In this document: piece by piece, positions 3,505-29,879 of the stretch
Layout of the letters: each line of letters begins with the position of its first letter
Position numbering within the stretch: the stretch's first letter is position 1
Virus record (IMG/VR): IMGVR_UViG_2541047870_000005
Reading direction: 5' to 3' (one strand)
DNA: 55,336 nt
From: a virus
Lineage: Duplodnaviria; Heunggongvirae; Uroviricota; Caudoviricetes
Made by a program: the position numbers and the translations under genes
The notes under the pieces: model-generated
The model's database searches: none
The model's input: only the letters and a program-made list of their open reading frames with translations
What the model was told of the DNA's origin: nothing

Positions 3505-3720
3505 TTAAAAATTCATATGGCCCTGACCATCTGGCAATGGATGTGGAGGGGCTGTGGCAATCACTGCAGGTGTCACAATAAACCGGACCACTGTTTCATG
3601 GGTAACAAAAGTGCTCCCGCAGTTAATATTTTGGCACTGGCAGTAACGCTCTTTGGTGCTTTCCGTTACTTGAAAACTGCTCCTTGTGTGCGCCGCATGA
3701 CCACACTTTGGACAATTCAT
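3505..3720 (-). CDS. ogr: Ogr-type zinc-finger late-gene transcriptional activator
   Basis: CPKCGHAAHTRSS...KERYCQCQNINCGSTF matches the Ogr/Delta C2C2 zinc-finger pattern; start taken at the internal Met (MNCPKCG), the ORF track begins at 3768. Confidence 0.8.
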   Translation of the reverse strand: MNCPKCGHAAHTRSSFQVTESTKERYCQCQNINCGSTFVTHETVVRFIVTPAVIATAPPHPLPDGQGHMNF

Positions 3721-3791
3721 CATATCCAGATCCCTACCTTTGCTATCAGAATCAATGCAATGATACACAAAATATCGATATTGAGAACCAT

Positions 3792-4892
3792 TTATTCCAT
3801 TTCAAGATCATTAATTTTCACTTCAAGTTCAATACTGGTTGTAAAACCGTTATCCGGGCTGACGGTATGCGTCAGAGTCGTAATGGTCCATTCCGCATCA
3901 TCTATCGGCTGTTTAAAGCCACTGACTTTCACTGGCATTTCCGTGTAGAGATCTGCCCGCCCTTCTGCCAGTTGTAGCGAGAATGACGCAACGCCGCGTT
4001 GCAGGCGTTCCCACTGCATTTTCGCCGCTCGTTCGGCGTTGCTCCGGTTGGCATAAGTGCGATTAAGTACCAGCACGTTTTCATCCGTACCCACCAGGTA
4101 ATCGCCCTGCTTCGCTTCCGGCTCTTTCTTCTGCTTCTTAGTTCTGCGCTTACGCTTCACCGTGGTGCTTTCTTTCTTCGCAGGTTCGCGGGTATGCAAC
4201 CAGCTGGCAATTACGCCCGTGTAGGCTCCGCGATCTGCCAGGGTAAAGCGGTGACTGTCGCCGTCCTTGCGTGTGATAGTGATCACTGGCAGTGGTTTAC
4301 CAGTGGCGCTTTTGCCCTGCCCCTGCCGGATGAATAGCAGATTGCCATTTTTCACCGACGCGATGGCACCGTACTGTCGCGCCAGCCGCATCAGAAAACT
4401 GCCGTCACTCTCATTAGTCTGGTCTATATGTTCCACGGGCTTATCCGACAGGTCTTTACCCAGCGCCATCTTCAGCTTGTGACGCGCGGCTATTTCCTTT
4501 ACCACTTCCCCGACGGTGGTCTTGTGCCAAGATTTTTCACGGCGGGTATTCAGGGTTTCCCGAAAATCAGCACTTCGCGCCCGGATAGTCAGGCGGTCCG
4601 GTGCGCCAGTGTGTTCAATCTCGTCCACCGTGAATGCCCCTTTCGGGAAAAGCGGCTGCCCCTTCCAGCCCAGCGCCAGCGTAATGACCGCACCACGGCG
4701 CGGCAGCACGATTTTTCCATCGGCGTCGTCCAGCTCCAGATCAAGCTGGTCCGCTTCAAATCCCCGGTTATCCGTCAGCGTCAGCCCCATCAGGCGGTTG
4801 TCCAGCACAGTGGTGATATCCCTGCCTTCAATACTGATGCTGAATGCCGGAGTTTTGTTGCCTTTGTTAAGCAGTTCAGAGCTGAAATTCAC
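3792..4892 (-). CDS. D: P2 gpD-like tail protein (late control D)
   Basis: 366-aa ORF at the gpD position between ogr and U; size and synteny. Confidence 0.75.
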   Translation of the reverse strand: MNFSSELLNKGNKTPAFSISIEGRDITTVLDNRLMGLTLTDNRGFEADQLDLELDDADGKIVLPRRGAVITLALGWKGQPLFPKGAFTVDEIEHTGAPDRLTIRARSADFRETLNTRREKSWHKTTVGEVVKEIAARHKLKMALGKDLSDKPVEHIDQTNESDGSFLMRLARQYGAIASVKNGNLLFIRQGQGKSATGKPLPVITITRKDGDSHRFTLADRGAYTGVIASWLHTREPAKKESTTVKRKRRTKKQKKEPEAKQGDYLVGTDENVLVLNRTYANRSNAERAAKMQWERLQRGVASFSLQLAEGRADLYTEMPVKVSGFKQPIDDAEWTITTLTHTVSPDNGFTTSIELEVKINDLEME

Positions 4893-21805: not shown

Positions 21806-23572
21806 ATGAACACCACACTGACACCCGCAGATCTCGATCCCCGTCGGCAGGCCATGCTGCTGTACTTTCAGGGATACCGCGTAGCCCGCATTGCTGAAAT
21901 GCTGGGCGAGAAAGTTGCAACCGTTCACAGCTGGAAAAAACGCGACAAGTGGGGTGACTATGGGCCGCTGGATCAGATGCAGCTCACCACCGCCGCACGC
22001 TACTGCCAGCTCATTATGAAGGAGCACAAAGAAGGGAAAGATTTCAAAGAGATTGACCTGCTGGCGCGCCAGTCTGAGCGCCACGCGCGGATCGGCAAGT
22101 TTAACAATGGCGGCAACGAAGCCGACTTAAACCCTAACGTCGCCAACCGCAATAAAGGCCCACGCCGTCAGCCGGAAAAGAATGTTTTCACCGATGAGCA
22201 GATTGAGAAGCTGGAAGAAATCTTCCATTCTTCCATGTTCAACTACCAGCGCCACTGGTGGGAAGCAGGAAAAACCAACCGCATCCGCAACCTGCTGAAG
22301 TCACGCCAGATCGGCGCGACCTTTTACTTTGCCCGTGAAGCCCTGATTGACGCCCTGCTTACCGGACGTAACCAGATTTTCCTTTCTGCCAGTAAGGCAC
22401 AGGCCCATGTCTTCAAACAGTACATCATCGACTTTGCCAAAGAAGTGGAGGTGGAGCTGAAAGGCGATCCGATGGTGCTTCCTAACGGGGCCACGCTTTA
22501 CTTCCTCGGCACCAATGCCCGCACAGCCCAGAGTTATCACGGCAACCTGTATCTGGATGAATATTTCTGGATCCCAAAATTCCAGGAGTTGCGCAAAGTG
22601 GCTTCCGGTATGGCTATTCACAAGAAATGGCGACAGACCTATTTTTCCACGCCATCCAGCCTGACCCACAGTGCTTATCCGTTCTGGTCCGGTGCGCTGT
22701 TCAACCGTGGACGCAACAAAGCCGACAAGGTGGACATCGACCTGTCCCACAGCAATCTTGCCCCCGGCCTGCTGTGCGCAGACGGGCAATACCGCCAGAT
22801 AGTCACCGTGGAAGACGCGGTGCGCGGCGGCTGTAACCTGTTCGACCTTGACCAGTTGCGCATGGAGTACAGCCCGGATGAATACCAGAACCTGCTGATG
22901 TGCGAGTTCGTGGACGATCTCGCGTCCGTGTTTCCGCTCAGCGAACTGCAGGCGTGCATGGTGGACAGCTGGGAAGTCTGGACCGACTTTCATGCACTGG
23001 CCCTGCGCCCGTTTGGCTGGCGCGAAGTATGGATCGGTTATGACCCGGCGAAAGGTACGCAGAACGGCGACAGTGCCGGATGCGTGGTGGTGGCTCCGCC
23101 AGCCGTGCCGGGCGGTAAGTTCCGCATTCTTGAGCGTCACCAATGGCGCGGGATGGACTTCCGCGCCCAGGCGGACGCCATCAAAAAACTGACCGAACAG
23201 TACAACGTGACCTATATCGGCATCGACTCGACAGGTGTAGGTCACGGGGTTTATGAGAACGTGAAAGCGTTCTTTCCTGCCGTCCGGGAGTTTGTTTACA
23301 ACCCCAACGTTAAAAACGCCCTGGTACTCAAGGCCTACGACATTATCAGCCACCGCCGTCTGGAGTTTGACGCCGGGCACACCGACATTGCGCAGTCATT
23401 CATGGCAATCCGTCGCGCCACCACCGCCAGTGGCAACCGCCCAACCTATGAAGCCAGCCGCAGCGAAGAAGCCAGCCACGCCGATCTGGCCTGGGCAACA
23501 ATGCATGCACTGTTTAATGAACCGCTGCAGGGCGAATCCGCCAATACCAGCAATATTGTGGAGATTTTTTGA
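21806..23572 (+). CDS. P: Terminase ATPase (large) subunit gpP-like
   Basis: 588-aa ORF divergent from O, followed by the portal gene with a 4-bp overlap. Confidence 0.85.
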   Translation: MNTTLTPADLDPRRQAMLLYFQGYRVARIAEMLGEKVATVHSWKKRDKWGDYGPLDQMQLTTAARYCQLIMKEHKEGKDFKEIDLLARQSERHARIGKFNNGGNEADLNPNVANRNKGPRRQPEKNVFTDEQIEKLEEIFHSSMFNYQRHWWEAGKTNRIRNLLKSRQIGATFYFAREALIDALLTGRNQIFLSASKAQAHVFKQYIIDFAKEVEVELKGDPMVLPNGATLYFLGTNARTAQSYHGNLYLDEYFWIPKFQELRKVASGMAIHKKWRQTYFSTPSSLTHSAYPFWSGALFNRGRNKADKVDIDLSHSNLAPGLLCADGQYRQIVTVEDAVRGGCNLFDLDQLRMEYSPDEYQNLLMCEFVDDLASVFPLSELQACMVDSWEVWTDFHALALRPFGWREVWIGYDPAKGTQNGDSAGCVVVAPPAVPGGKFRILERHQWRGMDFRAQADAIKKLTEQYNVTYIGIDSTGVGHGVYENVKAFFPAVREFVYNPNVKNALVLKAYDIISHRRLEFDAGHTDIAQSFMAIRRATTASGNRPTYEASRSEEASHADLAWATMHALFNEPLQGESANTSNIVEIF

Positions 23573-24600
23573 TGGGAAAGAGTAAGAAAAACCGCGCTGC
23601 GGCGACGAATCAGCTCAAGCATAAAAGCCAGACTTCAGCCGAAGCATTCAGCTTCGGTGATCCCGTTCCTGTTCTGGACCGCCGCGAACTGCTGGACTAT
23701 GTGGAATGCGTACAAACAGATCGCTGGTATGAGCCTCCCGTCAGCTTTGACGGACTGGCGCGAACCTTCCGCGCCGCCGTGCATCACAGCTCACCGATTG
23801 CAGTGAAATGCAACATTCTGACCAGCACCTACATCCCTCACCCGCTGCTCAGCCAGCAGGCTTTTTCACGTTTTGTGCAGGACTATCTGGTATTTGGTAA
23901 CGCCTACCTGGAGAAACGCACGAACCGGTTCGGTGAAGTTATCGCCCTTGAGCCTGCTCTGGCAAAATACACCCGACGCGGGTTAGACCTGGATACCTAC
24001 TGGTTTGTGCAATACGGTATGACAACCCAGCCGTATCAGTTCACGAAAGGCAGCATTTTTCATCTGATGGAACCGGACATCAACCAAGAGATCTACGGCC
24101 TGCCAGGTTATCTTTCTGCCATCCCGTCAGCCCTGCTCAACGAGTCCGCCACACTGTTCCGCCGTAAGTATTACATCAACGGCAGCCATGCAGGTTTCAT
24201 CATGTACATGACCGATGCCGCGCAAAACCAGGAGGATGTGAACAACCTCCGCAATGCGATGAAAAGCGCCAAAGGTCCAGGCAACTTCCGCAACCTGTTT
24301 ATGTACTCGCCTAACGGCAAAAAGGACGGGCTTCAGATCATCCCATTGTCAGAAGTCGCGGCGAAGGATGAATTTCTTAATATCAAGAACGTGAGTCGGG
24401 ATGACATGATGGCAGCGCACCGCGTGCCGCCTCAGATGATGGGGATTATGCCTAATAATGTTGGGGGGTTTGGGGATGTGGAGAAGGCTAGTAAGGTTTT
24501 TGTCCGCAACGAGTTGATACCGCTGCAAAAGCGAATCAAAGAAATTAATGAATGGTTGAGTGATGAAATAATCTCTTTCCTACCATATGAATTACAATAA
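23569..24600 (+). CDS. Q: Portal protein gpQ-like
   Basis: 343-aa ORF, size and position of P2 Q. Confidence 0.85.
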   Translation: MMGKSKKNRAAATNQLKHKSQTSAEAFSFGDPVPVLDRRELLDYVECVQTDRWYEPPVSFDGLARTFRAAVHHSSPIAVKCNILTSTYIPHPLLSQQAFSRFVQDYLVFGNAYLEKRTNRFGEVIALEPALAKYTRRGLDLDTYWFVQYGMTTQPYQFTKGSIFHLMEPDINQEIYGLPGYLSAIPSALLNESATLFRRKYYINGSHAGFIMYMTDAAQNQEDVNNLRNAMKSAKGPGNFRNLFMYSPNGKKDGLQIIPLSEVAAKDEFLNIKNVSRDDMMAAHRVPPQMMGIMPNNVGGFGDVEKASKVFVRNELIPLQKRIKEINEWLSDEIISFLPYELQ

Positions 24601-24627
24601 AATAGGGCAGATACTGCCCTATTTTAA
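24601..24627. terminator. Bidirectional rho-independent terminator between convergent portal gene and cargo operon
   Basis: aaaa-tagggcag-atac-ctgccctat-tttt: 8-bp stem, 4-nt loop, A-tract on one side and T-tract on the other. Confidence 0.7.
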
Positions 24628-25476
24628 CCAAATATTATAATCCAATCTTTCTACGTATCTTGAAATAACGGCTAGAGCAATTGCTTGCCCTACACTTGTT
24701 AGTTCAATTCCTTGATAGTTGCTCTTTGAAAATTTTTCTAAAAATGCAGACACATGAGGGGCAACTAACTTAAGATTTGAAATATACGCACTCTTATCTT
24801 TTATATCAGTCGGATATTTATCCATGAAATAGTCTTCAACATCTATCCCTAAAAAAGTATTCCATGAACAAGCCCCTGCATATTGAATGTGATATATCTG
24901 GGCTTGAGACAAATTAAACCCATTAGTATACATTGGTTCAAGATTTCTAAAATTGCGCTCCAACAAATCCAATCGAACACCATTAACAGGATCTTTGATC
25001 TCAACATTCTTGAGAAGAAAAACTATCGTTATAAGTGATATTTGTTGCTGTGTTAACTTTGGAACTACAGTAACTGCCTCCGTTAAAACTATATCTCTAA
25101 AATCGTCATTGTTATTGGAGACTCGTTCAACTAACAACTGAGAAAGCACATCCATATTAGCTTTCTTTCCCTTCCTGGCTGATGACTTTAATGCCTCAGT
25201 CAATGTCGCCTGAACGTCCGGATCGCAAAATTTATCAATAATCAATCTATCAACGTTTTTTGTTAAATCCGAAACGACACGCTCTTCAAAATCTTTTGCA
25301 TTCTCTTGAGCTGCAGCATAAGCAACATCTTTCAATTTTGGGAACTGATTTTCGAAGAGAATGTTGAATAGTTCTCTAACCTCGGAAAACGACATCCCTG
25401 AAACATTTACATTATTTCCAGCTTGAATTGCATACGAATTATTACCTATTTGTTGCTTTTGTTTATCACTAAACAT
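24619..25476 (-). CDS. Hypothetical 285-aa protein, AT-rich cargo between portal gene and cos-like site; second gene of a two-gene operon
   Basis: Long AT-rich ORF 9 bp downstream of the small membrane-protein gene; no recognisable motifs. Confidence 0.7.
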   Translation of the reverse strand: MFSDKQKQQIGNNSYAIQAGNNVNVSGMSFSEVRELFNILFENQFPKLKDVAYAAAQENAKDFEERVVSDLTKNVDRLIIDKFCDPDVQATLTEALKSSARKGKKANMDVLSQLLVERVSNNNDDFRDIVLTEAVTVVPKLTQQQISLITIVFLLKNVEIKDPVNGVRLDLLERNFRNLEPMYTNGFNLSQAQIYHIQYAGACSWNTFLGIDVEDYFMDKYPTDIKDKSAYISNLKLVAPHVSAFLEKFSKSNYQGIELTSVGQAIALAVISRYVERLDYNIWLK

Positions 25477-25485
25477 ATATCCTCC

Positions 25486-25731
25486 TTATTTTTTATCACC
25501 TGTATTTATACAATCAATTTTAATATCACCGCCAGCCTGGACACCAATTGAATTATCACCAACTGATTGACTCATAGAATTATATTTATTTTTTGTAGTG
25601 ATAAGTAATCCAGCTAAAGCGCTAACTGCAGCCAAAAATGCAACAATAGAATCAAAACCAGGATCCATATAAAGCCATAATCCAGCAATCAATGCCAGTA
25701 TACATGTAATGACTATTGCAAAAATTTTCAT
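25486..25731 (-). CDS. Small membrane protein (81 aa, two predicted TM helices); first gene of the cargo operon
   Basis: Hydrophobic segments IFAIVITCILALIAGLWLY and IVAFLAAVSALAGLLIT; C-terminal motif resembles the N-terminus of the downstream protein. Confidence 0.6.
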   Translation of the reverse strand: MKIFAIVITCILALIAGLWLYMDPGFDSIVAFLAAVSALAGLLITTKNKYNSMSQSVGDNSIGVQAGGDIKIDCINTGDKK

Positions 25732-25785
25732 AAGTTCTCCTTCTAATGGAAGTGGTTATACCGAAAACAATTTCCTTTTACAACC

Positions 25786-25935
25786 ACGCTCAGCGCGCGC
25801 TCGTATCCCCGCCACGCCTGCCCGCTTTGTATAGCGGTTTTCATGCACTCGCATGGCATAAGGGAAACCTTGCCAGAACTGGCGACCCTCAGCGAAAACG
25901 ATCTTCAAACGATCATGCGGATTCATGCAGCATAG
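25786..25935. other. Putative prophage cos (packaging) region
   Basis: GC-rich non-coding segment homologous to 42890-43033; minus strand reads GGCGTGGCGGGGA, matching my recollection of the P2/186-family cohesive end. Confidence 0.5.
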
Positions 25936-26138
25936 ACAGGCACTACTGAGCAATAGCGCTTGAGTTCAGTCAGATATGAGTCCTCAATGTAATACTAATA
26001 CATCTTAACCGTTCATCATTATTCACATCGGGCTATGTAATTACAGAAAAACTTTTCACAATCAATTTTATACTGGATTATTTCAGTTTATTGTATAATT
26101 CATGACGCATGCAAATTGACATTAATTCAGGAGACAAA

Positions 26139-27050
26139 ATGACATTAATTGTAGCTGGTTTCGAAAAAGATGGAACAATTGTTTTTTGCGGGGACTCACT
26201 AATAACAACAAAAGCAAATGGAAGCACTGTAAAATTGACATCGTCCTTTAGAAAAATAATACCACTAGAAATTATTGTGCGAGTACCGGAAATCGATCCA
26301 AGTGGAAAAATCATAAATTACATTGAAAGCCTTTGCCAACATCGCTGCATGATTGCATTTGCAGGAAGCACGCTAGTTTCTCAACATATTATAAATTCTA
26401 TACAAGGTCATCTGAAACAAATAAAATACACATATGATTCTGGCACATATGACTATTCAGAAGGATGCATAAAGGGTGCTGGCTATAAGTTAATAATGGG
26501 TTGTGAAGATAACAAAAGCGTTGAGGAAACCTATTGGAACGAAGATATGTTTGTTGAGCCAGTAAAGAATGCGAACGAACTTATTAATAAAAATTTTCTA
26601 CGCAACGTCTTTAGCCACTGCATACAGAAAACCATGAATGAATTTTACATTAATATTAATGAGGAATTTAATCCAGAGTGGTTTGCAAGCGATTTCATTG
26701 TAGCTCTGTCTTGCTATGAGACTAAAAAAAACCATCTTTTTACCTTTAAAATGGAATTTAATGAGTCAGGGGTCAATCTTATAGAAAAAGAAATTAATAT
26801 CAATGAACTGGCAATAATTGGCATTTCAAGATATAGCGAAGAAATAATTCAAGCATATCAAACTCAAAAAGCGACCCTCAGTACATCTGAAATTCTCAGC
26901 CAAGAGATTACTAAAGCAATCATAGACAATGAAAGCATTGATCTTAGAGAAATAGGAGATCCTGTCGTATTAAAAAAATTCAATCAACATCGTGAATTAC
27001 GTGATGAGCAAAAACACTGGAGGTGCAATACTCCTCGAGAAAACCAATAA
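26139..27050 (+). CDS. HslV/proteasome beta-subunit-like (Ntn-hydrolase fold) protein, about 303 aa, AT-rich cargo gene
   Basis: SD aggag 5 nt upstream of ATG 26139 (ORF track starts at 26109); MTLIVAGFEKDGTIVFCGDSLIT...VKL...IAFAGST...LAIIGISRYSEEIIQAY parallels HslV [21 protein letters not shown]...KK...AGFAGGT...LIAIGSGGPYAQAAARAL (recalled from memory). Confidence 0.5.
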   Translation: MTLIVAGFEKDGTIVFCGDSLITTKANGSTVKLTSSFRKIIPLEIIVRVPEIDPSGKIINYIESLCQHRCMIAFAGSTLVSQHIINSIQGHLKQIKYTYDSGTYDYSEGCIKGAGYKLIMGCEDNKSVEETYWNEDMFVEPVKNANELINKNFLRNVFSHCIQKTMNEFYININEEFNPEWFASDFIVALSCYETKKNHLFTFKMEFNESGVNLIEKEININELAIIGISRYSEEIIQAYQTQKATLSTSEILSQEITKAIIDNESIDLREIGDPVVLKKFNQHRELRDEQKHWRCNTPRENQ

Positions 27051-27123: not shown

Positions 27124-27312
27124 CTAACCGAGAAGATCCATTGAGCGGTTGTATTCGTGGCTTCTGATTTTTGCCATGAGTTCATCAGTCAATTCAGAAA
27201 CCCACTGCAGAGCCAGCCCCTTCTCTTCATCATTACACTCACTAGCCGCTACAAGCTTAAGAAAAAAATCAATGCGCTGGAGCTTCAAAGACTCCAAAAA
27301 ATAGTCCTGCAT
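27124..27312 (-). CDS. Small hypothetical protein (62 aa) downstream of replication gene A
   Basis: Short AT-rich ORF; no motifs. Confidence 0.35.
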   Translation of the reverse strand: MQDYFLESLKLQRIDFFLKLVAASECNDEEKGLALQWVSELTDELMAKIRSHEYNRSMDLLG

Positions 27313-27464: not shown

Positions 27465-29879
27465 TTAATACAGATCCCGCCACTTATCATCTTCCTGCAA
27501 ACGCTGGTTCCGATAGAAGATACGCAGGCCTGCTCCTGACGGAATACTGCCGCCGCGAAGGAGTAAATCGACCTCTTTCTCGCTGCCATCAAATCCTCTG
27601 GACTTCAGTTCATAGACGAGCTGCTGTCGCTGATGGTCTGTAATTCGCTGTTTGTAGTCTTTACGCCGTTTCGGTTTCACCAGGCGTAACCTTGCAGCCA
27701 GTTCCCGGCGCTCTTTTTTGCTCATACTGTGCAGGTAATCGTGCAACTCCTTGTCATCCATGCGGGTAATGTCCGTTCTGGTATCCCCATCAGCTGATTT
27801 GTCTTTCCCTTGTTGGTTCAAATTTTCAGCAAGGGGACAGTTATTGCCACGAGTCCAAGGGGCGCAAGCGCCCTGGTCGGCTGCCGCCTCCTGAACGTCA
27901 ACGGCCTTACGAACCATTTTCCACTTCACCGCATGAGTGCAGATCTTGCCCTCTGCAATGGGTGACCAGATGCCATAAATACGAATACCGTGATCGCCAT
28001 AGGCGGTCGGTTCTTCGTTGATTTCATAAGCAGTTCTGATGAGGTGATATTTGCGGGGAACCAGTACGCCGCCCTGCTTCATGATGTAGGTGGCAAAACA
28101 ACCAGCATCAGCAGCAGCCAGGATTGCATCAAGGCGCGGGTTATCCAGTACCGGCGCACCTGCTTTTTTGTCCCCCTGTTGCCTTGCCGCCTGACCAGCC
28201 AGCAATCGCAGTTCACGGTAAGCCTGACGCCCCGGAATGCCAAAGAAGCGGAATTGCTGAACACGATGCAGAGACGCCCAGGCATTAACGTATTCAGCGT
28301 TATCACGCAGGGATTTACCCGTTTCCTTGCTGATCTCGCCAGCCAGACCACGCCCGTCAATGTTCTTACTGATGTATTTCGCGATGTAGCTTGTTGGCGT
28401 ACCTTTGCGCGGGTTTATCAGCTCAGACTTAAAGCGTGGTCCCGTGTTATTACCCAGCTCCTCGCGGTCTTCACGAATGGCAAACTTACGCAACAAAGCA
28501 GTAATGGTGCGGCGATCTTTTTTGCGCATAAAACACAACAGATGCCAGTGAACTGTACCGTCATGATGCGGCTCAGCCACCCGCACGCCATACCAGCGCA
28601 ATCCGGCTTTGTGCATCGCCTTACGAAATGCAGCAAACATGCCGACCAGATAATCACTGCTTTGTCTTACCGTCGCATTTGTCCAGGTCGGGTTGGGCCT
28701 GCCGTTATTTAGCGTGGAATGGAAACGTGACGGACAGGTGATGGTGTAGAAAACGGCGCAGTCACCGCGCATTTCCGCGATAAGCTCCAGACCTTTAACA
28801 CAGGCCATCATCTCATTGCGGCGATGCGCAGGGTTGCTGCTGCTGGCGTTTACCACATCCTCCATGTCCAGCGTGTCGCCGTCTTCGTTCACCAGTTCAT
28901 GAGAACGGAAAAACTCCAGTGACTTGCGGCGCTGCTCACGTTTATGCATCACGGCTTCATAGCTGACATAGGGAGATGCTTTTTTGCTGACCAGGCAAAC
29001 AGCACGCAACTGCTCTTCCCGCCATTCGCAACGCATCTTCCACAATTTCCGATACCACCAGTCGGCGCACAGCATACGCGCCAGCGACCCCGGAATGAGT
29101 TCATAGGGCACGGGTTTACGGCGGTTTCTTTTCCGGCGGAGTTGCTCAAACGCAGGCGGTATGACATCCAGTCGCAGGGTTTCTGCTGCCACCTTTTCCC
29201 ATGTCTTGCGGATTTCTTCTGGCTTAACATCATCGGTGGCATACAAATCGCCACAAGCAGCATCAAGGCACATGCTCATATGCGCAGCTACCAAGGTGGA
29301 CAGGCGTTTCACCTGATCCTGACTCATTTCAGGCAGAATCAGCAGGCCATCCAGCCCTTCATGGCTTGCCATAAAGCGAAAAGAAGTGGATAGCTGACTG
29401 TCGCGTACATGCTCCAGCCGTTCCAGACATGGCTTAATCGTCTCACGCAAATAGCGGGAATAAGCCTTTGGCCTGCCCAGGCTGCTGAAGTATTCAATAC
29501 GTTGCATCAGCGGCTTGCTGATATGGGAAGGCTGGGCGTTAACGTCCGCCAGAATGACCATGTCTGGATTAAAACGCTGCTGCTCATGCGCCAGCTTTGC
29601 CCAGCTAATGAGCTTATCCTGCTCCATTTCGCGTTGGACAGGATCACGGGATTCATTAAAGAAATAACGCTCCCAGACCTGAGCACTCAGTGCCTCGCGG
29701 CGCAGCTGTTCCTGCTCGTTATCGGCAGCGTACAGAGTGATCAGGTTTGAAAGCGCAGAAACCGGCGCGACTTCCGCCGGGTCCAGATAAGGGTTAATGG
29801 CCTTTTTCGGGCTGTTCCATGAGAATGCTGCGGCGGCCTCGTTAAAGCCGCTGCAGTTGTTCATATCAGCATGGCTCAT
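27465..29879 (-). CDS. A: Replication initiation protein gpA-like (rolling-circle endonuclease)
   Basis: 804-aa ORF in the position of P2/186 A; contains YIAKYISK-type tyrosine motif. Confidence 0.8.

Follow-up and report, generated by a model that had tools for sequence, protein, structure and literature searches.

Two adjacent genes in a tailed-phage genome raise the question of why the same peptide should stand at the end of one protein and at the start of the next. The genes lie on the minus strand of the viral record IMGVR_UViG_2541047870_000005 (Caudoviricetes; 55,336 nucleotides (nt), the whole stretch being called the window below), and encode a small membrane protein of 81 amino acids (aa) and an LPO_1073/Vpar_1526 protein of 285 aa. 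We find that the peptide is a motif conserved on both partners of a two-gene module that is present in at least six phyla. Our preferred reading, which taken as a whole we regard as evenly poised, is that the repeated peptide is the homotypic coupling motif of this module, likely acting by cross-β stacking; both the interaction and a role in defence are what we infer. Its parts differ in strength. A direct motif-motif interaction of the two tails is quite probable. An anti-phage function of the pair is somewhat favoured, and amyloid-like templating by the motif is a tentative proposal.

The repeated peptide and the gene pair

The features of the pair are as follows, in coordinates of the window.

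25486-25731, minus strand: gene of the small membrane protein, 81 aa (phrog_27656 match, E = 1.1e-56)
25591-25728, minus strand: predicted hairpin of two transmembrane helices in the small protein, aa 2-22 and 26-47 (AlphaFold2 (AF2); conserved W19...P-G-F-D-S turn)
25516-25569, minus strand: motif in the C-terminal tail of the small protein, QSVGDNSIGVQAGGDIKI, aa 55-72 (alignment and AF2)
25477-25485, minus strand: intergenic spacer GGAGGATAT, 9 nt, with the Shine-Dalgarno sequence of the large gene (from the sequence)
24619-25476, minus strand: gene of the large protein, 285 aa (open reading frame, ORF)
25402-25461, minus strand: motif in the N-terminal tail of the large protein, QKQQIGNNSYAIQAGNNVNV, aa 6-25 (not covered by the NCBIfam domain model)
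24625-25398, minus strand: LPO_1073/Vpar_1526 domain of the large protein, aa 27-284 (NF045477 match)

The two genes are tightly coupled. The TAA stop codon of the small gene occupies 25486-25488 and the ATG of the large gene 25474-25476; both ORFs share a frame, and the motif copies are direct repeats 114 nt apart. The small protein ends as ...MSQSVGDNSIGVQAGGDIKIDCINTGDKK. The large protein starts with QQIGNNSYAIQAGNNVNV (in a longer reading MFSDKQKQQIGNNSYAIQAGNNVNVSG...), and its aa 9-25 are QIGNNSYAIQAGNNVNV (nt 25402-25452). The first-pass annotation of this DNA had described a common pattern on the facing ends of the two proteins, with nothing but a stop codon, 9 base pairs (bp) and a start codon between the copies. 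Translation of the minus strand recovers both segments within 25400-25580, separated in just this way.

The top local alignment of the small with the large protein is exactly the motif segment, with a BLOSUM62 score of 50. Shuffled controls (n = 2000) gave a mean of 27.7 ± 4.7, and 4 of the 2000 reached 50. The alignment is thus better than that of shuffled sequence, and homologues keep the motif on both partners, so that neither of the grounds on which the pattern might have been dismissed when it was first noted is borne out. Elsewhere in the 55-kb window, translated in all six frames, a regular expression for the motif finds no further copy. When the six-frame search was extended to the window plus the first 79 related loci, the pattern matched the pair and its tandem paralogues only, apart from two loose matches. 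The motif likeness of the two proteins is not due to chance; the stronger evidence for this is its conservation on both partners, rather than the shuffle score.

Conservation of the two-gene module

Related loci were fetched from genomes (n = 23), viral contigs (n = 12) and metagenomes (n = 44), with apparent exceptions settled by eye; they carry our labels beginning with L, and LPO_1073 relatives from a wider search labels beginning with P. In all related loci with enough upstream DNA, the gene of an ~80-aa small membrane protein lies directly upstream of the LPO_1073 gene. The intergenic gap in 49 non-redundant pairs ranges from -14 to +16 nt, with a single exception of ~300 nt. These 49 loci span the Alpha-, Beta- and Gammaproteobacteria, Chlorobi, Planctomycetes, Acidobacteria, Bacteroidetes and Desulfobacterota. 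The hosts include Comamonadaceae, Pelomonas, Salinimonas, Glaciecola, Pantoea, Acinetobacter, Nitrospirillum, Methylocystaceae, Chlorobiaceae, Kuenenia/Brocadiaceae, Bryobacterales, Polaribacter and Desulfomonile. The two-gene arrangement is ancient, and the adjacency of the two genes is obligate.

The motif common to both partners can be written Q-x-Q-x-[VI]-x3-S-x-[GA]-[IV]-Q-A-G-[RG]-[DN]-[VI]-x-[IV]. It is found at the N-terminus of 120 out of 120 large-protein homologues listed (~40% identical to the large protein), each of which begins as a variant of M-L-G-D-K-Q-x-Q-x4-G-S-T-A-I-Q-A-G-[RG]-D-V-x-[YI]; Q8, Q18 and A19 are invariant. The upstream membrane protein keeps the motif in the 49 non-redundant loci, its C-terminus reading Q-x-Q-x-V-S-x2-S-x-G-I-Q-A-G-[RG]-[DN]-V-x-I. 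Here Q55 and Q65 are invariant, and G63, A66 and G67 are conserved in at least 90%. The upstream proteins also have in common two hydrophobic helices, an invariant Trp (W19, in two small-protein alignments) and the P-G-F-D-S turn. We detected 269 clusters of this small-protein family, with lengths of 74-114 aa, and Pfam annotation is nearly absent from it (PF19428 on 1 of 120 listed members). The window's own small protein matched no Pfam, NCBIfam or PADLOC family. The exact window pair is rare in E. coli, occurring in 6 of 5426 complete genomes.

In some loci (L008/L034, L012 and L064-L067) a single small gene precedes two LPO_1073 paralogues in tandem, both of which have an N-terminal motif of their own. 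The motifs of the paralogues differ from each other, e.g. ALQAKGNI and ALQAGGNI in L008. In L016, from a metagenome-assembled genome, the small gene (~3650-4100) is broken by a frameshift within the first membrane helix, and is either a pseudogene or the product of an assembly error.

In viral contigs the terminal-tail motif adjoins an LPO_1073 gene wherever the neighbour is readable (10 loci), with the exception of L152. In L097, which encodes a small motif-tailed protein, the end of the locus cuts off the downstream gene. L152, a phage contig, encodes a 140-aa multi-pass membrane protein (4345-4767, plus strand) with the C-terminus GQTQTVGAGSVGIQAGGDVYARHEA, a full tail motif. Its downstream gene resembles, by eye, a ThyX-type thymidylate synthase, and there is no LPO_1073 gene in the locus. 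The L152 protein may be an orphan, may have its partner in trans, or may be a phage decoy.

Selection on the peptide and not on the DNA

A local duplication across the gene junction was one of the two origins suggested by the first-pass annotation, and as a recent DNA event it does not stand. The arrangement of the window copies, as direct repeats in one frame, would fit such an origin. Against it, the alignment of the two motif segments as DNA, which had been proposed as a check, has just 33 of 54 bases equal (61%), and both partners keep the motif across at least six phyla at ~40% overall identity. The frame relation and the gap of the pair vary among loci, and the in-frame layout of the window is not kept elsewhere. 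Codon choice points the same way. In the 49 non-redundant pairs (L001-L077) the same codon is used at shared residues 160 times, where 180 are expected (z = -2.0) from each large gene's own codon usage. Since codon agreement is not above expectation, the DNA bears no mark of gene conversion or of a duplication in the recent past. The likeness is maintained by selection on the peptide, not on the DNA, and the explanation that the repeat is a functionless, neutral remnant of local duplication, or of ongoing gene conversion at the junction, is effectively refuted.

We note that same-codon use in the motif pairs is in fact slightly below expectation. One possible reason for the deficit is that direct DNA repeats, through which the gene junction would be deleted, are avoided. 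Stop-codon read-through or a programmed fusion, suggested by the in-frame layout, is ruled out by the variable frame and gap among loci, and a role of the repeat in RNA by the fact that the copies are direct, not inverted, and that synonymous sites are unconserved.

Likeness between cognate partners

Tails of cognate partners are more alike than those of non-cognate ones, with 8.86 of 20 aligned positions identical compared with 7.98; none of 20000 permutations (0/20000) reached the observed value. The strongest coupling between positions is in register, between +3 of the small and +3 of the large protein, both being R or G, with z ~19-20 (18.7 in one computation). Shared ancestry was controlled for by comparing +3 of the large protein with 247 columns from the body of LPO_1073; the maximum z was 7.0.

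Unique variants common to cognate partners are more telling than statistical covariation. Both proteins of L077/78 have N at position -2 (Q-Q-G-G-[SD]-N-[SA]-I-N-V-Q-A-G-R-D), and thus INVQAGRD, and in the Acinetobacter locus L020 both partners have Q-A-D together with an insertion. These derived variants are shared by the cognate partners only and are seen nowhere else.

The small protein of L028, L029 and L036 is near-identical to that of the window, with five residue differences. Three of these five changes (I62T, G63A and G67R) are in the motif core, and the motif of the partner is unchanged.

Split and fused architectures

At E ≤ 1e-3 an exhaustive profile search for LPO_1073 relatives gave 2340 representative clusters, of which 1645 remain at E ≤ 1e-10. 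Most of these relatives have the motif at the extreme N-terminus. The suggestion that homologues might exist as one fused ORF proved correct, among distant relatives only. P0300, P0343, P0348 and P0374 are single chains in which one membrane helix is followed by a basic stretch, next by the motif and finally by the LPO_1073 domain; the fused motif is degenerate in P0343 and P0348. A single-helix module, N-x-E-W-L-F-x-G-I-G, is found in split form in L077 and fused in P0300 and P0348. P0360 has one membrane helix, two tandem copies of the motif and the LPO_1073 domain, and from this order looks like the direct fusion of a gene pair; it is a singleton cluster, known from one 2.5-kb contig.

A second form of fusion is seen in P0337, P0364, P0367, P0373 and P0382, where an N-terminal extension of ~110-145 residues is followed by a motif-like linker (e.g. 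G-S-G-T-Q-I-I-T-Q-A-G-D-V-N-I-N-Y-G) and the LPO_1073 domain. Of these extensions only that of P0337 was compared with known structures, and it gave a match to an HNH endonuclease (PDB 9om4, E = 1.5e-8) and to the Cap5 chains 7rwm, 7rwk and 8ysq (E = 3e-4 to 1e-3). Pfam HNH_2 on P0337 and P0367 is below threshold (E = 0.05-0.07), and the Pfam scan of P0382 gave no HNH match. The C..C / H-I-E / HH signature of P0337 is seen by eye in P0364, P0367, P0373 and P0382. The NF045477 cutoff was passed by all 8 of the 8 relatives scanned (P0337, P0344, P0360, P0364, P0367, P0373, P0374 and P0382), a set that left out P0300, P0343 and P0348.

P0381 (374 aa) and P0321 (396 aa) have soluble helical N-terminal extensions of 90-140 aa, then a Q/N/G-rich linker and an LPO_1073-related domain. 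No family could be assigned to these two extensions, which may be further types of effector.

Taken together, the fused and split forms indicate a general plan of effector, motif and LPO_1073 domain, with each half of a split form retaining a copy of the motif. A motif pair is read as a substitute for a covalent link by the same argument in fungal and bacterial amyloid signalling (10.1101/2020.01.06.895854; 10.1101/2024.11.07.622273).

The folded domains and their tails

The large protein matches the NCBIfam model NF045477 (LPO_1073/Vpar_1526) with 244.7 bits, where the curated cutoff is 45, over positions 1-257 of 257. It is therefore a full-length member of this family, its homologues are annotated PF28206, and the RefSeq name of a 99%-identical E. 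coli gene is LPO_1073/Vpar_1526 family. The match covers only aa 27-284, which places the motif outside the named domain. An AF2 model calculated from the family alignment is a confident all-α domain, with a mean predicted local distance difference test score (pLDDT) of 86.2 for the whole chain and a predicted template modelling score (pTM) of 0.81; the pLDDT of aa 1-28 is 45-60. The model had no structural match in BFVD at E ≤ 0.001, and a profile search of PDB sequences with LPO_1073 gave no match. A similarity to T4 Cef (PF24050, E = 0.007; phrog_1354, E = 0.0012) was judged to be chance, being seen in 1 of 56 family members.

For the small protein AF2 predicts helices at aa 2-22 and 26-47 with pLDDT ~90, and a tail (48-81) at ~50. 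In the models, both motifs are therefore located in flexible, low-confidence tails beside confident domains. The hairpin has basic residues on its N- and C-terminal sides and acidic residues in the turn, from which the positive-inside rule predicts an N-in/C-in topology with a cytoplasmic tail. LPO_1073 is the putative sensor or regulator of the pair, and the membrane protein its putative effector.

Resemblance of the motif to a rung of a β-helix

Over 98 copies the motif is composed of G (15%), Q (12%), A (11%), S (10%), V (9%), I (9%) and N (7%), with G+Q+N making up 34.5%. P, W and C are absent, and L (1.4%) and K (2.7%) are depleted. The motifs of bacterial amyloid signalling sequences (BASS) and β-helical proteins have the same residue bias (bioRxiv 10.1101/2020.01.06.895854).

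Viral contigs were scanned with degenerate DNA patterns for an R-type 8-mer ([GA]-I-Q-A-G-R-D-V) and a G-type 8-mer. The R-type scan matched members of the module (L086, L090 and L093), L097, noise, and two giant haemagglutinin-type ORFs, in which the 8-mer GIQAGRDV is one rung of the haemagglutinin-type repeats (Pfam Fil_haemagg_2, E = 3.9e-8). The G-type 8-mer occurs also inside unrelated globular proteins, among them an R-T-A-I-Q-A-G-G-N-V-G-V-Y-P family and tape-measure proteins. By itself the 8-mer is therefore no diagnostic mark, and only the context of a terminal tail is specific to the module. The idea that the motif is a general adaptor carried by other domain families was rejected on the outcome of these scans.

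A concatemer of ten natural small-protein tails matched Fil_haemagg_2 with E = 1.5e-5 and 25.6 bits (cutoff 22), and a concatemer of large-protein tails with E = 0.01. Residue-shuffled concatemers gave no match. For the native small and large proteins PF13332 is not listed at E ≤ 1, and these are not members of the haemagglutinin repeat family; the likeness is a structural analogy. Judged by its sequence, one motif looks like one rung of a β-helix, as would be expected if several tails stack together in a cross-β assembly resembling a β-solenoid.

Proposed mechanism and alternative explanations

We propose that the first gene encodes a two-helix membrane hairpin, whose C-terminal tail of ~35 residues, probably cytoplasmic, bears the motif, and that the second encodes a soluble, all-α LPO_1073/Vpar_1526 protein whose flexible N-terminal tail of ~25 residues bears the other copy. 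The tails would recognise each other in register, joining LPO_1073 as sensor or regulator to the membrane protein as effector. Their pairing would substitute for the covalent link of those relatives that have a membrane helix, or an HNH nuclease like that of Cap5, joined to the LPO_1073 domain via the motif. The most likely mode of recognition would be the stacking of motif copies as rungs of a β-helix-like cross-β assembly. The pair would then signal in the amyloid manner of HET-S/NWD2, the motifs of BASS and E. coli Bab/Agp, the last of which sets the experimental precedent for this logic. A trigger, probably phage infection, would make LPO_1073 oligomerise, whereupon its N-terminal motifs would nucleate the stack and recruit the tails of the membrane protein. 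The hairpins would then cluster and damage the membrane, leading to abortive infection.

A bolder form of this proposal can be stated, which we consider speculative and rather unlikely. The pair would belong to a new and very widespread class of prion-like immune switch in unicellular Gram-negative bacteria and their phages. LPO_1073 would nucleate a β-solenoid with one rung per subunit, the tails would polymerise to create a lethal pore, the motif would gate the HNH domain in the fusions, and orphans of the L152 type would be decoys like the viral RHIM proteins.

The first-pass annotation had left the choice between a common interaction motif and a common processing motif. Interaction is supported by the conservation, the likeness of cognate partners, their private variants, the flexible tails and the fusions; nothing supports a processing site. 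The main rival is then a static tether, i.e. a constitutive, stoichiometric complex formed through a small β-sheet or a shared groove of LPO_1073, without templated polymerisation. In the groove version the tail of the large protein would be a pseudo-ligand in cis, displaced by the tail of the small protein. The motif might then do no more than anchor or regulate LPO_1073 at the membrane, e.g. in a toxin/antitoxin-like pair. Conservation, adjacency, the location in tails and the split and fused forms would fit docking equally well, and the fused forms retain one motif copy only. Docking is also favoured by a column of the LPO_1073 body that follows the R/G state of the small protein (below), an association that may however reflect clade. 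Against docking, AF2 leaves the N-terminal tail undocked with a pLDDT of 45-60, and neither the G/Q/N-rich, proline-free composition nor the likeness to a β-rung is expected of an ordinary groove-binding peptide. On balance we think that static docking is an unlikely explanation. A less probable one still is that the tails do not meet at all and that a third party from host or phage binds or processes both; this might be a protease or chaperone, a reader of degrons, or a trigger protein of the phage. The motif is terminal, predicted to be flexible and strongly conserved on both proteins, as such a reader would require, and the orphan of L152 bears the tail motif without an LPO_1073 neighbour. 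But a reader acting across at least six phyla would have to change together with the variants private to cognate pairs (L077/78 and L020), no third conserved gene accompanies the pair, and the fusions have the motif at the place where the covalent link otherwise stands. We regard this explanation as improbable.

A number of observations weigh against the coupling of the two proteins by stacked motifs. When the co-switching of R and G was tested by parsimony on a neighbour-joining tree there were 7 and 8 changes, of which 3 fall on the same branch where 1.2 are expected (P = 0.09). Much of the raw covariation may be phylogenetic, and as the tree-aware test is not significant we treat the statistical covariation as suggestive only. 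At about residue 85 of LPO_1073 (nt ~25222-25224) the D/E column of an invariant F-x-[DE]-P-D-V-Q loop tracks +3 of the small protein with z = 13.7, and +3 of the large protein itself far less (z = 2.5). The counts are 18 for R with E, 19 for G with D, 7 for R with D and 2 for G with E, and all four loci in which the small protein has R and the large G carry E in this column. The association is either a clade effect or a contact, and could mean that the tail docks onto the domain. A single motif is below every Pfam threshold, the match to the haemagglutinin repeats requiring an artificial concatemer. The fused relatives retain the motif where it is needless for linking two chains; this fits homo-oligomerisation, and equally a role unrelated to coupling. 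Matches to NACHT/NB-ARC or Bell/HeLo domains in Pfam or NCBIfam, expected of a NOD-like receptor (NLR) and its Bell partner, are absent from the pair; the Bab/Agp system discussed below shows that an NLR is not obligatory. As regards defence, PADLOC 2.0.0 gave no significant match for either protein, the best for the small protein being E = 0.022-0.027 on its membrane helices, and the flanks outside prophages are a mixture of defence, conjugation and housekeeping genes.

Genomic context and neighbouring genes

The region of the window around the pair is a P2-like prophage, with the following features.

21806-23572, plus strand: large terminase
23569-24600, plus strand: portal (gpQ)
24598-24626, minus strand: terminator-like hairpin closing the operon, where the large gene and the portal gene converge (13-bp stem, then a T-rich tail)
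27465-29879, minus strand: gpA-like replication gene, 804 aa

The pair is thus located between portal gpQ and replication gpA. This region of P2-like phages is an experimentally validated reservoir of anti-phage systems (PMC9122126). The same gpQ-gpA layout is annotated in E. coli PEC422, where the pair has other cargo neighbours, indicating that it is a self-contained module. Individual flanks among the loci contain defence genes, namely IetA/IetS, Cas1e, components of type I and type II restriction-modification systems, SoFic, PDC candidates and PIN; no third conserved gene accompanies the pair in the flanks examined. A literature search for the family and for motif strings found them linked neither to an anti-phage role nor to this context. 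PADLOC, Pfam and NCBIfam scans of the four cargo ORFs gave a single significant match, that of NF045477 to the large protein.

Positions 25800-25818 of the window read ctcgtatccccgccacgcc, the reverse complement of GGCGTGGCGGGGATACGAG, which we take to resemble the 19-nt cohesive end of P2/186-type phages. The surrounding GC-rich block (~25760-25960) is conserved in many E. coli P2-like prophages, and matches obtained with a wider query start at ~25788. This cos-like sequence places the motif pair between the portal gene and cos, with a 313-aa gene on the other side. The latter ORF (26109-27050, plus strand) matches phrog_25719 with E = 4.5e-133 and has a weak likeness to HslV-family peptidases (phrog_1040, E = 0.013); it had no Pfam, NCBIfam or PADLOC match. 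It is a separate cargo gene, PEC422 carrying other genes at that position. A 62-aa ORF (27124-27312, minus strand; phrog_698, E = 3e-37) recurs beside the pair in a Pantoea P2-like prophage (L019, 3310-3498), and in PEC422 a 189-nt hypothetical-protein gene beside gpA corresponds to it by position and length. This ORF is probably a P2 backbone gene and not cargo.

Implications and comparison with known systems

If the coupling reading is right, amyloid-type signalling would extend beyond the NLR/Bell pairs of filamentous bacteria and the single case of Bab/Agp, and in the large LPO_1073 family a sensor domain of a new kind would be paired with effectors that can replace one another, be it a two-helix hairpin, one membrane helix or an HNH nuclease. 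The LPO_1073/Vpar_1526 proteins would gain a function, as would a family of small membrane proteins that has no annotation, and the P2 hotspot of Salmonella and E. coli would include one more candidate defence system. With proteins of 81 and 285 aa and tractable hosts, the system would be a compact one in which to study the cross-β activation of an integral membrane effector. Even on the conservative reading, that of a self-matching peptide tag in place of a covalent link, the motif gives a useful rule for pairing the genes of defence islands.

Several properties of amyloid-motif pairs are found here. The effector has at its C-terminus the motif with which its partner begins, the two being encoded by adjacent collinear genes in the window and the 49 loci. 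The motif is ~20-25 aa long, enriched in G/N/Q/V/I and depleted in P/L/K, with tails of pLDDT ≤60, and all-in-one fusions exist, with one membrane helix or an HNH-like N-terminal domain.

The closest of the known systems, compared by its described layout, is the abortive-infection system Bab/Agp (BASS11) of E. coli ECOR25. Its description (bioRxiv 10.1101/2024.11.07.622273) gives adjacent collinear genes, a small membrane-targeting effector with a C-terminal motif and a large non-NLR partner with an N-terminal motif, as in the present pair. The same source places Bab/Agp in prophage defence hotspots and gives a motif of ~23-25 residues in which glycines act as breakers and Q, D and N are conserved (10.1101/2024.11.07.622273). 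By contrast, the effector of Bab/Agp is soluble, a helical domain of Bell-like type which moves to the membrane, whereas here it is an integral two-helix hairpin. According to that description amyloid formation and defence were demonstrated by experiment for Bab/Agp, and for the pair here we infer them.

The BASS1-10 pairs of Bell and NLR proteins, from Actinobacteria and Cyanobacteria, likewise have their motifs at the C-terminus of the effector and the N-terminus of the receptor, in mostly collinear genes with gaps of at most 10 bp or overlaps (bioRxiv 10.1101/2020.01.06.895854). These motifs are ~25 aa long, enriched in Q/N/G/V/I and depleted in K/P/L, with ~40-55% identity within a pair; the receptors are NACHT/NB-ARC NLRs, the effectors Bell proteins and the hosts mainly multicellular bacteria (10.1101/2020.01.06.895854). 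In our pair both domains are missing, and it occurs mainly in unicellular Gram-negative bacteria and phages. HET-S/NWD2, the other fungal amyloid signalling sequence (FASS) motifs (HRAM, PP and sigma) and the metazoan RHIM are like our proposal in that an N-terminal motif of the receptor templates a C-terminal motif of the effector. In systems of the HET-S/NWD2 type the effector attacks the membrane, fused all-in-one forms are found beside split pairs, and the rungs of the HET-s β-solenoid are ~21 residues long. FASS and RHIM systems differ from the pair in being eukaryotic, in their pore-forming HeLo effector and in having no sequence relation to the motif.

Other likenesses concern single parts of the system. 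The fused protein P0337 resembles Cap5, the HNH-SAVED effector of cyclic-oligonucleotide-based anti-phage signalling systems (CBASS), in its HNH domain match and in that LPO_1073 stands where the C-terminal sensor does; it has no SAVED domain or cyclase partner, and the comparison concerns distant relatives and not the proteins of the window. Haemagglutinin/TpsA repeats (PF13332, Fil_haemagg_2) share the rung pattern x-[IL]-x-A-G-x-D-[IV]-x-[IL], but the pair has one copy per protein, is unsecreted and lacks the TPS (two-partner secretion) domain. Rst_2TM_1TM_TIR and other systems of the P2 hotspot share the gpQ-gpA site and small transmembrane proteins presumed to be suicide effectors (PMC9122126); the pair here differs in having no TIR or nucleotide-signalling partner, its coupling being apparently by peptide and not by a small molecule. 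Pairs of effector and sensor with a shared motif are thus already known, while the motif, the sensor fold and the integral-membrane effector of the present pair are all new in a comparison that takes BASS1-11 by description only.

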